Of a stretch of DNA of 64,000 bases, positions 18,223-60,980 are shown one piece after another; the stretch's first letter is position 1; each line of letters starts with the position of its first letter. The notes beneath the pieces were generated by a model. It did no database searches. It was not told the origin of the DNA and was given only the letters and a program-made list of their open reading frames with translations. The DNA is from Pecten maximus (taxonomy: Eukaryota). The translations under genes were made by a program, and so were the position numbers. The stretch is taken from contig NC_047017.1 in the NCBI RefSeq assembly GCF_902652985.1, positions 11,160,001-11,224,000 of the forward strand. Direction: 5' to 3'.

Positions 18223-18255
18223 CAGAGACATATACATGTGATATACACATCTCTG
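18223..18255. mobile_element. 33-bp decayed CAGAGAC-family hairpin (probable transposon excision footprint)
   Basis: CAGAGACATATACAT...ATATACACATCTCTG flanked by GTGAGAC / GTCAGAC (6/7 direct repeat). Confidence 0.6.
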
Positions 18256-18964
18256 GTCAGACCAAGCTCATTAATATATACATTTGTATGTGTAAAGAAA
18301 TGATTGCCCTTCCCTTTGATGATATTTTAGACAAGAATCGGTTGCTATCAACTTGGGCATTTATGAGTACATTGTAGTAGTGTTCTAAAGGAAAGTTTAG
18401 GACAGCGTCCGGTGATGACAGCCGGTCTGCATGACCCTAAATCGGGTAGAATGGAAGCTTCTCCGTAGAGATACAAAATCAGTATTCTTCCAAAAAGGAA
18501 AACTTAAAGGCTAATCATCCTTTGTCCATGGCCGTCAAAAGTCACGTAATCAATATTTCTCATTCAGAATTGGGTGGATCTTTTTCCATAGCTGTTTAAA
18601 TTGCTTTCCTATCTACTTGTACATGTTTTATTTTGAGACTGGTAAGTAGAGACAATTACACATAGACGGCCATCTTTAATTTTGAGAGTTAAAACAAAGA
18701 CACAGCTACATAGATCTTTCATGTTTGTTCCACTTGGTTCCTAGATGTTTTAAGACTGAATATAAAAATGAAATGACTGACTGGTGGCCGTCATGGATCT
18801 TTAATGTTGCACATTTATTGCCTTTTCTCAGAAGTTAATATAGGATTTTTTGTTTAGATTCGCATAAGTACTCATTTATGCTGGTTTATTGTGTGTCCCA
18901 GTGGTGTGTATGACCCCAGTTTCATGTCATTACCTTCGCTAACCAAGAGTTCTCTCCATTTTAG

Positions 18965-19043
18965 TAGCCCGAGTTTTCTCTGGCCCTGTCACCATGTCTG
19001 GTGTAGGCAGACATGGTGACAGGGCCAGAGAAAACTCGGGCTA
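18965..19043. mobile_element. 79-bp hairpin MITE, TAGCCC family
   Basis: Perfect 36-bp inverted arms TAGCCCGAGTTTTCTCTGGCCCTGTCACCATGTCTG around the loop GTGTAGG; flanks CATTTTAG / CATTTTGG. Confidence 0.9.
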
Positions 19044-20878
19044 CATTTTGGGTGTTTACTAAATGAACCCTTGTAACTGGTTTATACCGGACTAAATGTA
19101 AAATGTTATGAGAGAGGAGACACCCTCGTTGATTGCGTATTATCAGAATAACTTATAAATCATTTACAGGTAATATTTGGCATTGACAAACGGTAATGGG
19201 GTCACAGATTATGACACGAGTTGAAGAACAAGGAATCACTTTACAATAAAACCTGTCTGTGTTGTTATCTAGGGACATTATCACAATTAATATCGTCATC
19301 ATTATACAATACCGTACACATACTGTCGTTATTATAATTAAATTATCATCTAACATAATTTATCCCTCGGTGTATATGGAAGGCAATGCTCGTCTTATTC
19401 ACGTTATGTATTGTAAGATGAGAAGCTGAAGGTAAACATCTAGACACAAGATATAAACATCTAGAAACAAGATATGTAGTTGATCATGTTTATCGTACAT
19501 AACGCAGGTTTAGTTATAAACTAACACAGTTCTTTTAATACAGAACCCGAGACCGTCTGTTATTGTTTAAGTTTGCCGAAATAACAAAATTCTCTTATTT
19601 CATCTTCGCCATTTATCAAGATATCTCTGTTTCTGATCGTAGACGTTTATATGATTTCAGGTTTTTTAATTTCTTACTGGAAGATAGAAATAGCGAGATA
19701 GGATTTTGTAGCAACTGCTGACAGAATAATGGACTGAGCTCATACATAGGTACCAAAGAGAGAAGGGGTTCCAGAGCGGAACCTTGGGATATATATATAT
19801 ATATATATATATACTGCAAAATCAGTTGAGCAATATAGGCTTTCTAGTTATTTAAACGTCTGTTCTCAACAAGCTTGTTGACTTTTAACCATAGTAGGCT
19901 AAAAAATAAAATATCATTTTAATCCCGGAAGAAACGACTTATTTGATTTCATGCAACTCGACACTTAGCCAAGTTAGCAGACTAGATAAGAAATATAGTA
20001 ACAAATCTATAAAAGTAGGAGGGAAGCTTCAGTTCTCGCCCTGATACAACGGTAGCTATCAAACTATGGACATCAGCACGGTATTTCGACTAGCATACAT
20101 AGAACATCATATATTTGTGAATTCCACAGTGCATTTCTACTAGCATTATGTAAGAGTTATCTCCCTTCCCTGAACGCTCGAGAACTTTCAAACCTGTAAC
20201 AAATGCTATCTATATGTGATTCTTAGACCGTGTTTTTTGTCATTTTCCTCAGAAACATGAAGATGTCAAAATTGAGACTCGCTGCTTTCCCTGCTGTGTT
20301 GATTCATAGCCCTGTGAGATCAGGAAGTTATAAATATGAAAAATATTAAATGCCCCGGTGATTGCGTTACCAGGCAACACTTTTTACAGTACTTAATTCA
20401 CATTTAAAAAAAAAAAGAAAACGTCCAATATTGGCTGTCTAACGATCAAAGTACACAAAATGTAACTACAAACGTTGTACTTTAGTCCGCATGATTCTGA
20501 CAATCCATCCACTTTAATATACTGCTGGGGGAGGATGATAGCCTAACAGTAGCGGATAGAGAGTCATTAAAAGTAGGTGTCAATGTATTAAATACTTCGG
20601 ATCAAAACGTACATGTGTGTCGTATTGTTATCCATCTGTTAATGTTCATATTCTCTGTACCGTACTGTTTATGATGATAAACATTTGTCATTGTCAGTTC
20701 GGTCGCCACCTCCTTAAAAATGGCACCATAACTGTGTCCTCCATTTCATACACTCACGTGGAACAACTTCCGTTAGTTTAGGTATATGAAATGTAAATTG
20801 CATTTAAGGTTTTTACGTATATAACTGTCACCATGATCTTTTTATTGAGAGCAGAATGCGAAATATAGCATCTCGATG

Positions 20879-21378
20879 TTTTTATTAGCTCACCTCGTTC
20901 CGGTGCGCCTATAGCATCGCGCGGTGTCTGTCGTTTCCTATAAATCGCTACTAATCCTGAACGACTGAATGGAGTTTGAGGAAGTTTGGTCTGGAGCATT
21001 ATTGGGCAAATGAGATCCAATGTTGCACAAACAGGGCGTGTAGCTCCCCGGGGTCTGGAGGGGTGATACCCATTAGAGTATCATATGGTCTGGACCATTA
21101 GTGAGAAAACGAGATTCAATGGTGTGTAAATGAGGGGTTTGGCTCCTCTGAGTCCGGAGAGAGGTGGCCCAGGAGAAATTAAGCAATTTTTCATTTTATA
21201 TCTATATATTTTTTTAATTCTTTATGATAAGATTTGGCCCATCTTTGGTTTGAACCAATGTTGGGAGAGGTAACTAAAAGAAACAGGAAATATTTGTAAC
21301 AAAACTTATATGAGAATATTTTACTATGATTTCTGAATATCCAAATGAACATTGCAGGCCCTCTGGGCCTCTTGTTTG
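20879..21378 (+). mobile_element. Degenerate HINE-like element
   Basis: 5' TTTATTAGCTCACCT; 3' hairpin AGGCCCTCTGGGCCT CTTGTTT of the same type as the 27076 end. Confidence 0.65.
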
Positions 21379-21651
21379 TTAAAAATATGTTGGAACCATG
21401 TACTTGTTCGCTTGGTAGTACGTAGTAGTCATTGGTCGCTAGCTGTTTAACCCACAGTAAGATCGCTTTATGACGATGTCCACTTAAATGAGTTCAAAAG
21501 TTGCTTCGTAACTTATATTTCACTGAAAGGTCGTATCGCGGGCAAATTAATCTCGGACCATTAAAGGGACACTGGAACCGGCGGGATATTCCGTAGATAC
21601 TATATACATCAATACTACTAAAACACAAAATTGTTTTAAAATGTCAACAAT

Positions 21652-21657
21652 TTTAAT
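21652..21657 (-). promoter_or_regulatory. Candidate poly(A) signal (ATTAAA) of the Rho GTPase gene
   Basis: Minus-strand ATTAAA ~890 nt after the stop, followed ~25 nt later by a U/GU-rich tract (TTTTGTGTTTT). Confidence 0.4.
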
Positions 21658-59514: not shown

Positions 59515-59541
59515 ACGACGCCATTTTGTTTGTCACGTGAC
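59515..59541 (-). promoter_or_regulatory. MED6 promoter: YY1-type AAAATGGCG plus palindromic E-box GTCACGTGAC
   Basis: GTCACGTGAC at 59532-59541; CGCCATTTT at 59519-59527. Confidence 0.55.
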
Positions 59542-59766
59542 CAAATGTGAGGCAGGTTCGATTAGAAATTCTGACGAAAAAGATTATCTTGATATCATGT
59601 TGGGTTTCGTTTCGGAGCATATTTATACTTCATACGATTTGTGTGTTTGCAATATACATAACATTTTCATCTTTCATAGAGTGAAAATGACACATCCACA
59701 TTGAAGAAGAACACGATATAATATCGGTATGCATTACAGGGTGGTAAAACATAAAGTACATCATAG

Positions 59767-60692
59767 CAGAGACATATATACAGAGAGATTAGTAACATCG
59801 CTATTTCCCCGTACACATAGTGGCTCCCTTTATTCGTGACCACTCAAGCATATCCCTTATCGAGAGCGTCCTGTCTCCTATCAAACACACGCGAGCGCAG
59901 GTAAATCGGGCTATGCGCATGTGTGTATCGTAGTATTGGAACTTATTCGACATGTTCTGGTTAATCCGCCATTACCAAAAACCAAAACATCGTCATTTTA
60001 AATACACACAGAAAGCACATCGTTTTATTTTGGCCACTACAAAAGTTACCACATTAACCAAAAACTATCAAACTTATGGGATATAGTCTTATTGATCATG
60101 CATATTGTTGTCATTTATCCGTATTTTCGAAAATCCATTGGGTCCTATTCGACATGTCCAAGTTTGTAATTAAGCCGCCATTACGTCAGACCAAAACATC
60201 GTCAATTTTAAACGCACACAAAAAGCACATCGTTTTATTTAGGCCACTACAAAAGTTACCACATTAACCAAAAACTATCATACTTATGGAATGTGGTCTT
60301 GATTATCATGCACATTGTTGTCATTTATCCGTATTCTCGAAAACCCCATAGGGACTTTTCGAAAATTGGAGATTCCCGCCGATCTTTCCTGCGTTGTGCT
60401 TGACTTTCATACTCAAAATACAAACACTTGGACATCAAATTGTGATATATTTCATATTGATGACACTTCTGCACTTTGATATTAATAAAATTAAAGCACA
60501 TAATTGGATCTTGGTGATGATTTCAAATAGAAATTATCGATAATTATGTGTCTGGTTTTCAAGTTTTCTCCAATATGGCGTCTAGTGAAGACTAAACCGA
60601 GCGACCGCAAAGGATTGTGGGAAGGTCAGGGGCCACTATGTAAACACAAGGGCAAATAGAGAGCTGCCAATCTCTCTGTATATATGTCTCTG
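59767..60692. mobile_element. 926-bp non-autonomous TIR DNA transposon (P-superfamily-like)
   Basis: Perfect 24-bp TIR CAGAGACATATATACAGAGAGATT with imperfect subterminal extension; 7-bp TSD ATCATAG; internal ~205-bp direct duplication (59940-60345). Confidence 0.88.
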
Positions 60693-60699
60693 ATCATAG

Positions 60700-60729
60700 C
60701 AGGGACATATATCTTATTATACGTCCCTG
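60700..60729. mobile_element. 30-bp hairpin CAGGGAC...GTCCCTG (probable excision footprint)
   Basis: CAGGGACATATATCTTATTATACGTCCCTG flanked by ATCATAG on both sides. Confidence 0.8.
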
Positions 60730-60964
60730 ATCATAGTGTCTTTAACATATTTCTTATTTTCAATCGATCATAACTATTCTTTGTCAGAGATCCCAATGCA
60801 TAGCCAGGGACATTTATATCTGACCCTTGTGATCTTGAAAATAGGTGAAGGTCATTAATACGAAGAAACTGCTGCTAATGGACTTCTGAAATGAAGAAGG
60901 AAAATCCTTGAACGTTTTATAAATACTTCTCTTTTTAGTAACTCTTCAACTACGAACAACATAT

Positions 60965-60980
60965 CAGAGACATGTCTCTG
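60965..60980. mobile_element. 16-bp palindrome CAGAGACATGTCTCTG (probable excision footprint)
   Basis: Perfect 7-bp flanking direct repeat AACATAT; identical to the first and last 8-9 nt of the 926-bp element. Confidence 0.82.

Follow-up and report, generated by a model that had tools for sequence, protein, structure and literature searches.

Four tiny inverted repeats, each set between two copies of its own 7-bp direct repeat, lie in a 64,000-nucleotide stretch of the genome of the scallop Pecten maximus (NCBI RefSeq assembly GCF_902652985.1, contig NC_047017.1, positions 11,160,001 to 11,224,000 of the forward strand; the whole stretch is hereafter called the window), and the question raised by this locus is what left them there. 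It is highly probable, in our assessment, that these hairpins are excision footprints of P-superfamily transposons, left at the donor site between the two 7-bp copies of the target.

Hairpins and target duplications in the window

The four hairpins (annotated without strand) and their 7-bp repeats (on the plus strand) are found where a first, sequence-only reading of the window had reported them. An older 33-bp footprint at 18223 to 18255, the right terminus of which has decayed by one base, is flanked by target copies at 18216 to 18222 and 18256 to 18262 that differ by one mismatch. The other three pairs are perfect target site duplications (TSDs): TCATCAG at 37163 to 37169 and 37199 to 37205 around a 29-bp footprint at 37170 to 37198, ATCATAG at 60693 to 60699 and 60730 to 60736 around a 30-bp footprint with CAGGGAC tips at 60700 to 60729, and AACATAT at 60958 to 60964 and 60981 to 60987 around a 16-bp footprint at 60965 to 60980. 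The duplication length is 7 bp only, as 5, 6, 8, 9, and 10 bp do not fit. Hairpins with a TSD occurred 0.02 times on average, and at most once, in 100 block-wise dinucleotide shuffles, compared with four in the window. The lone 7-mer terminus is not enriched (13 seen versus 10 expected), so that the hairpin signal resides in the paired termini plus the TSD.

A third copy of ATCATAG, at 59760 to 59766, precedes a 926-bp element with terminal inverted repeats (TIRs) at 59767 to 60692, and the order across 59760 to 60736 is target, 926-bp element, target (common to the element and the 30-mer), hairpin, and target. Contigs from three studies revealed an empty allele (59766^60741) in all three samples that cover the site, one of which may be the assembly's own source. 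This allele holds a single ATCATAG, and neither the 926-bp element nor the 30-mer is found in it; the contigs of all three samples do contain the 16-mer. Empty paralogues were also found for 12 footprints inside host repeats, with no gap at the junction. The empty allele and the empty paralogues show that the hairpins are true insertions. One paralogous pair of footprints, considered as independent excisions, turned out to be one shared footprint and its deleted version.

The sequence-only reading took the 926-bp element as the single parent and gave most of the hairpins arms of 14 to 16 nucleotides (nt) each. Comparison with parent ends revised both points. The 29-mer joins a full 17-nt arm of family C to a 14-nt arm with a 2-nt TA overlap, and the 30-mer joins a 13-nt arm to a full 18-nt arm of family E with a 1-nt overlap. 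The hairpins thus stem from different families with only the first 7 bases in common, and only the deeply trimmed 16-mer can derive from the family of the 926-bp element (family A). The microhomology join proposed for this last hairpin was confirmed, with arms of 9+9 nt and a 2-nt AT overlap. In the 33-mer at 18223, one arm corresponds to a B-type end over 17 nt with one CpG-type change and the other to an A-type end over 12 nt; its exact parent was not identified. A search of Rfam with positions 59500 to 61300 gave no match.

Two different P families at one identical 7-bp target, as at 59760 to 60736, were also seen at L312:4777-5897. End-to-end sites with a spacing of 5 to 9 bp number 135 genome-wide, and 7 bp is the commonest spacing (15 of 28 clusters in a hand count of the first 50 sites).

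Genome-wide record of hairpins

The 918-Mb genome was scanned with the pattern CAGRGAC-N(0-30)-GTCYCTG, using exact termini and the reversed pattern as the control. The scan, which omits decayed copies such as that at 18223, returned 4,168 hairpins, compared with 589 for the control and approximately 96 expected from base composition, and the large genome-wide record anticipated from the window does exist. The length count, which covers hairpins up to 44 bp, placed 405 at 19 to 23 bp, 1,027 at 35 to 44 bp, and the remaining 2,736 at 14 to 18 and 24 to 34 bp. A peak near 30 bp had been proposed as a check, and most of the first 50 sites (35) do measure 24 to 34 bp, with a mode of 33.

In family-targeted samples, a 7-bp TSD with at most one mismatch flanks 22 of 26 and 23 of 25 loci, while 6 or 8 bp was found in none of the 51. 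Across all fetched DNA, it flanks 157 of 197 hairpins, a sample enriched by family-directed searches, and the target preference is RTWWWAY. The joins in these 157 hairpins contain filler (76), use microhomology (66), or are blunt (15). Hairpins in the fetched DNA range from 16 to 62 bp, with varied centres, and lack an internal motif, GRGAY, that is found in their parents (see below).

Footprint-plus-TSD units have in places expanded to minisatellites (L304:4510-4936, with a 35-bp period, L305:5015-5512, and L306:4986-5094). Among the first 50 sites of G000:C1, 6 of the 49 gaps are shorter than 2 kb (0.3 expected), and the clusters mix families, which suggests insertion hot spots.

Parent elements

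The 926-bp element is a non-autonomous P-type element with a perfect 24-bp TIR, a perfect 7-bp TSD, and internal repeats of approximately 210 bp. All 40 candidates scored, from a total of 687, are near-full copies at 94 to 100%, and 27 of 30 copies have a perfect adjacent 7-bp TSD, with 2 more having it outside a 14-nt terminal duplication. Its homogeneous size and sequence and its intact ends are those of a miniature inverted-repeat transposable element (MITE), a description that does not apply to the hairpins. Duplication of the 14-nt tip inside the TSD was observed at L006, L022, L139, and L082 (elements and one footprint) and could come from re-joining after a one-ended cut or from slippage on the internal repeat.

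A genome search with PF21787 gave 44 matches, of which 20, and then 11 further, were extended. Autonomous copies likewise carry TIRs starting with CA and perfect TSDs. One autonomous element of 13,671 bp (G000:C5:3888865-3902535) shares its TIR with the 926-bp element and is flanked by a perfect 7-bp TSD, and another of 10,312 bp (G000:C4:52489941-52500252) has a sister TIR. The 926-bp element is 76 to 88% like both ends of the 13,671-bp element and is a non-autonomous derivative of it. The parent of the common 33-mer, found with a looser pattern, is a non-autonomous element of 9,379 bp, enlarged by a nested retroelement-like frame, with a 19-nt and a 17-nt end that yield this 33-mer when joined through GG:CC.

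The terminal consensus of the P superfamily is CANRG. The twelve end variants catalogued here have the tip CAGRGAC, followed by an AT-rich spacer of 9 to 12 nt and then GRGAY. The hairpins come from several P families and not from one.

A second P-like clade with CACAGG tips, 7- to 8-bp TSDs, and PIF1-helicase and PHD-finger frames was also encountered (L074, L075, L077, and L078). Two of its copies, of 10.9 kb (L075 and L077; G000:C1:29543249-29554171 and C11:569689-580613), are 99.6% identical and thus very young. This clade was considered as the source of the hairpins and rejected, given its other termini. At L069 and L072, P-transposase copies lie in large inverted duplications of several kilobases.

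Positions at which the arms stop

Arm lengths were tallied by hand over the 100 rows listed for each search, where rows are strands and palindromic sites count twice. Family A, with a boundary at 18 nt, gave 41 arms at 16, 15 at 17, 41 at 18, 1 at 19, and 2 at 20 nt, and a 16-nt end exists in one subfamily of the 926-bp element. Family B, with a boundary at 19 nt, gave 13, 7, 20, 55, 4, and 1 arms at 16 to 21 nt, and a single 33-mer makes up 19 of its 100 rows. The boundaries of families C and E were predicted before their tallies were made. For family E (18 nt) the prediction held cleanly, with 41 arms at 18 and none beyond; the other end of this family, E2, stops at 16, and a blunt 18+16 join was seen. 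Family C (17 nt) gave 4 arms at 16, 59 at 17, 36 reading 18, and 1 at 20. Blunt joins of two full tails were found at the predicted sizes (18+18, 18+16, 19+19, and 17+17), and a scripted count of 162 sites, restricted to filler-containing joins, agrees with the boundaries set by hand.

Pairing with the complement of tip bases 3 to 7 is possible in all twelve catalogued ends for the five bases that lie inside the boundary, and in family E the tip bases and the internal repeat have changed together. These data suggest that each end has its own limit of arm length (16, 17, 18, or 19 nt), immediately ahead of the internal GRGAY repeat, in place of the fixed 17-nt stagger assumed in the sequence-only reading.

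From these positions, which are those of repair products alone, we infer a long staggered cut after which the donor retains TIR tails. Insertion of elements with CAGRGAC tips duplicates a 7-bp target that loosely follows RTWWWAY, and a P-type catalytic core is encoded by autonomous copies that have these tips. On excision, one strand would be cut at the tip, and the cut in the opposite strand would lie within the TIR, immediately ahead of the GRGAY repeat of tip bases 3 to 7; depending on how long the AT-rich spacer of the end is, the chromosome would keep a tail of 16, 17, 18, or 19 nt. By analogy with the Drosophila complex, the GRGAY repeat may allow fold-back of the transferred strand and its pairing with the strand that is cut. 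The boundaries of the arms, together with this pairing capacity in all ends, suggest a nick placed by the internal repeat. End-joining of the two tails, either blunt, through 1 to 3 nt of microhomology, or with filler, would then produce hairpins of 16 to 50 bp with a mode near 33. A second gene of the element, convergent with the first, is predicted to provide the transposase with its C-terminal domain.

The same footprints could be imagined to come from a stagger fixed at 17 nt, the value given for Drosophila in PMC7776569, if the range of 16 to 19 nt were an effect of trimming, of filler, and of microhomology. A stop at 17 is indeed seen in families C and B2a, and boundaries often end in A beside AT-rich filler; however, agreement with the parent is exact over 18 nt in 41 of 100 rows for A and 41 for E1 and over 19 nt in 55 for B, there are perfect 18+18 and 19+19 palindromes that extend beyond any 17-nt tail, and E2 stops at 16, all of which makes a fixed stagger unlikely.

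Identical loops at many loci, named in the sequence-only reading as an observation that would count against footprints, do occur. Among the fetched loci, the 29-mer of 37170 is found in 14 different targets, and a 32-mer and a 33-mer are found in 7 each. They do not refute footprints, since they are the predicted microhomology joins and since laboratory excisions of the Drosophila P element also repeat joins, the same one having arisen up to 14 times independently (PMC2895639). Recurrence at unrelated targets, each with its own 7-bp TSD, is also what self-mobile micro-MITEs, moved by P transposase as units of 16 to 40 bp, would show. We consider such units very improbable: the recurrent forms are short-microhomology joins of parent tails (GG:CC in the 33-mer and TA in the 32-mer and 29-mer), lengths and centres are otherwise very varied, the internal motif present in all 12 parent ends is missing from the hairpins, and a unit under approximately 38 bp would be left without duplex after two staggered cuts of 16 to 19 nt. 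With the recurrent joins explained, a mobile micro-element is not needed, and occasional movement may still take place. Extreme internal deletions or aborted gap repair of full elements, which would be uninformative on the cut, are just as improbable, for although TIR elements form stem-loops that favour deletion and P excision in flies often leads to synthesis that aborts and is closed by end-joining (PMC2895639), a broad tail of long arms would be expected, whereas arms clearly past the boundary amount to 3 (A), 5 (B), 1 (C), and 0 (E) of 100 rows and the arm edge is sharp even though the TIRs run to 24 bp and more.

Transposase and convergent gene

Both autonomous elements encode proteins with PF21787, PF21788, and PF21789. 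PF21787 and PF21789 score over the cut-off, and PF21788, the GTP-binding insertion, has an E value of 8e-20. The sole sequence match in the PDB is the Drosophila P transposase (E value of 1e-13), and by hand reading of the alignment all GTP-site residues that PMC7776569 names, except K385, are kept (7 of 8). Protein P0001 (950 amino acids [aa]) has acidic motifs at 529, 633, and 881, of which the second D and the E correspond to D303 and E531 in the alignment with 6p5a_A. On sequence criteria, the RNase H DDE core, the GTP-binding insertion, the termini, and the TSD make these elements members of the P superfamily.

The sequence-only reading predicted a P/THAP9-like enzyme and proposed a search for an autonomous transposase with these TIRs. 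The P-type core was found, in the 13,671-bp element, and the THAP domain was not: a Pfam search gave no THAP hit at E≤0.01 in the frames of 965, 973, and 1,007 aa, a THAP-like motif was not found in the six frames of six elements, and PF05485 is listed for 3 of 120 homologues and for none of the top 96. One database protein, identical to the transposase, carries the label Pecten maximus.

The core protein ends 70 aa past the catalytic E, as do 111 of 113 motif-bearing homologues within 85 aa, and the C-terminal domain is not in the same polypeptide. In all four families, a convergent gene is present on the opposite strand (34 to 52% identity). Its family, which stands alone, comprises 1,386 clusters; a C2H2 finger is often present, and the longest of 152 members retrieved has 480 aa. 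PF12596 weakly hits 11 of 95 members, with a best E value of 0.0023. The second gene itself gave no Pfam family at E≤0.01, no PDB hit by sequence, and no profile match to a THAP-bearing homologue, and no longer fused form was found among 5,828 candidates, which is weak evidence. A match to the C-terminal domain was proposed before the structure search. The model of the second gene has a pLDDT (predicted local distance difference test) of 91, and the top match among 48,161 chains in VIA-align is the Drosophila C-terminal domain (Z of 11.6, root mean square deviation of 2.3, 118/118 residues; next Z of 7.2). Foldseek gave no match at E≤0.001, and hits in the Atlas were uninformative. This modelled similarity indicates that the transposase is likely split over two genes, with the C-terminal domain on the convergent one.

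Observations that weigh against excision footprints and the proposed cut

Several observations count against the interpretation of the hairpins as P footprints with a variable cut. The haplotype comparison proposed in the sequence-only reading brought out empty and occupied alleles and no pairing of a full-element allele with a footprint allele at one site, in the contigs of the three samples or in the fetched paralogous loci. Ends C1, C2, E1, and E2 are known from one copy each, with no TSD pair; only proximity links families C and E to transposase genes, and for C1 there is no link at all. A first guess at the parent end of the common 33-mer failed, its one hit being itself a footprint. Some identical hairpins were copied with the host repeat (L101/L111 and L204/L222) or by tandem growth, and the count of 4,168 therefore overstates the number of independent events.

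As for the boundaries, the 36 of 100 family C rows that read 18 are ambiguous, the opposite arm supplying the same base, and 29 of them are one 32-bp palindrome. At the 17-nt B2a end, 4 of 18 filler-class arms reach 19 to 21, and this boundary could be 19. Twelve arms past the boundary are listed across the fetched DNA, and most boundaries fall at A|G, where AT-rich filler could add a base. The PF12596 match of the second-gene family is below the Pfam cut-off, and the C-terminal match, with its Z of 11.6, joins helical domains, for which Z can reach 13 to 14 by chance.

Other features of the window

The surroundings are ordinary intron-rich DNA with many tandem arrays. One of these, at 52852 to 54476, is a 30/40-bp array with a unit made of a 33-bp CAG...CTG stretch plus 7 bp; it was rejected as a member of the hairpin family, as its termini differ, and the 20 rows of the 40-bp array returned by the hairpin scan at 53752 to 54384 were set aside. 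A WD40-repeat exon lies at 2884 to 4272 on the plus strand, and a frame at 22543 to 22968 on the minus strand resembles what we take to be the C-terminal part of a Rho-family GTPase.

Comparison with known P elements

In Drosophila the P transposase makes the inner cut 17 bp in, the transferred strand turns back on itself and base-pairs with the 5' portion of the opposite strand, and the C-terminal domain carries a single-stranded loop (PMC7776569). The scallop elements share with it the RNase H core with a GTP-binding insertion and, as their ends suggest, the fold-back pairing of the tip (PMC7776569), and their scars resemble the junctions described in PMC2895639 in that both target copies are kept, the TIR ends are joined blunt, by microhomology, or with filler, and joins recur. 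The scallop scars differ in being natural, present in thousands of copies, and derived from several families. The TSD is 7 bp in the scallop and 8 bp for the Drosophila P element, the tails appear to be 16 to 19 nt as opposed to 17, and the parents measure 9 to 14 kb compared with 2.9 kb. The scallop enzyme has no detected THAP domain and its C-terminal domain is apparently on a separate gene, whereas the Drosophila P protein has both. Among the canonical P/THAP9 features, those that failed here are the THAP zinc finger, the fused C-terminal domain and, as the arms suggest, the fixed 17-nt cut.

A 7-bp TSD is also characteristic of Galileo and 1360/Hoppel, members of the P superfamily (PMC2775673, PMC3698922, and PMC4168063), with PMC3698922 giving it for Galileo and 1360. 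The palindromic GTANTAC target of Galileo resembles the RTWWWAY preference of the scallop. Unlike in those elements, the TIRs in the scallop are short, and the termini are different. Word searches of these three papers, in the parts drawn upon, found no description of excision footprints for Galileo or 1360/Hoppel. Zebrafish Pdre2/THAP9 (PMC10983969) is likewise a non-insect P-type system, in which excision of Pdre2 by a P-type transposase was shown. In contrast to the scallop enzyme, zebrafish THAP9 is a single THAP-containing protein, and the part of PMC10983969 drawn upon gives the 17-nt stagger for the Drosophila enzyme only. RAG-like transposons, which belong to an unrelated superfamily, also have two convergent genes (RAG1L/RAG2L) in one TIR element that make one cutting machine (PMC7204232). 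This is an analogy only, as the second gene of the scallop elements resembles a domain that is fused in the Drosophila P protein.

Implications

Footprints of this form are known from laboratory excisions. For natural genome-wide P footprints, a variable stagger, or a split P transposase, no paper was found in a search to which most subscription journals and Repbase were outside. We lean, with modest confidence, towards a widespread clade of giant P elements of marine invertebrates that would combine a THAP-less two-gene transposase, its C-terminal domain bearing a C2H2 finger and encoded apart from the core, with an inner nick measured from the internal repeat of the tip instead of from the tip itself and overhangs of 16 to 19 nt, and whose scars would archive both the geometry of the cut and germline end-joining across the clade.

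Since natural ends that differ in their spacers report tails of different lengths, it becomes testable whether the position of the nick depends on a count from the tip or on the fold-back repeat. The split transposase, if true, would mean that nature has set apart the domain guiding the single-stranded tail, which would be of use for the study of the mechanism and as a two-part tool. The scars provide thousands of dated germline end-joining junctions in a mollusc. They are also small polymorphic markers, probably too short for the usual repeat annotation, and some of them seed minisatellites.

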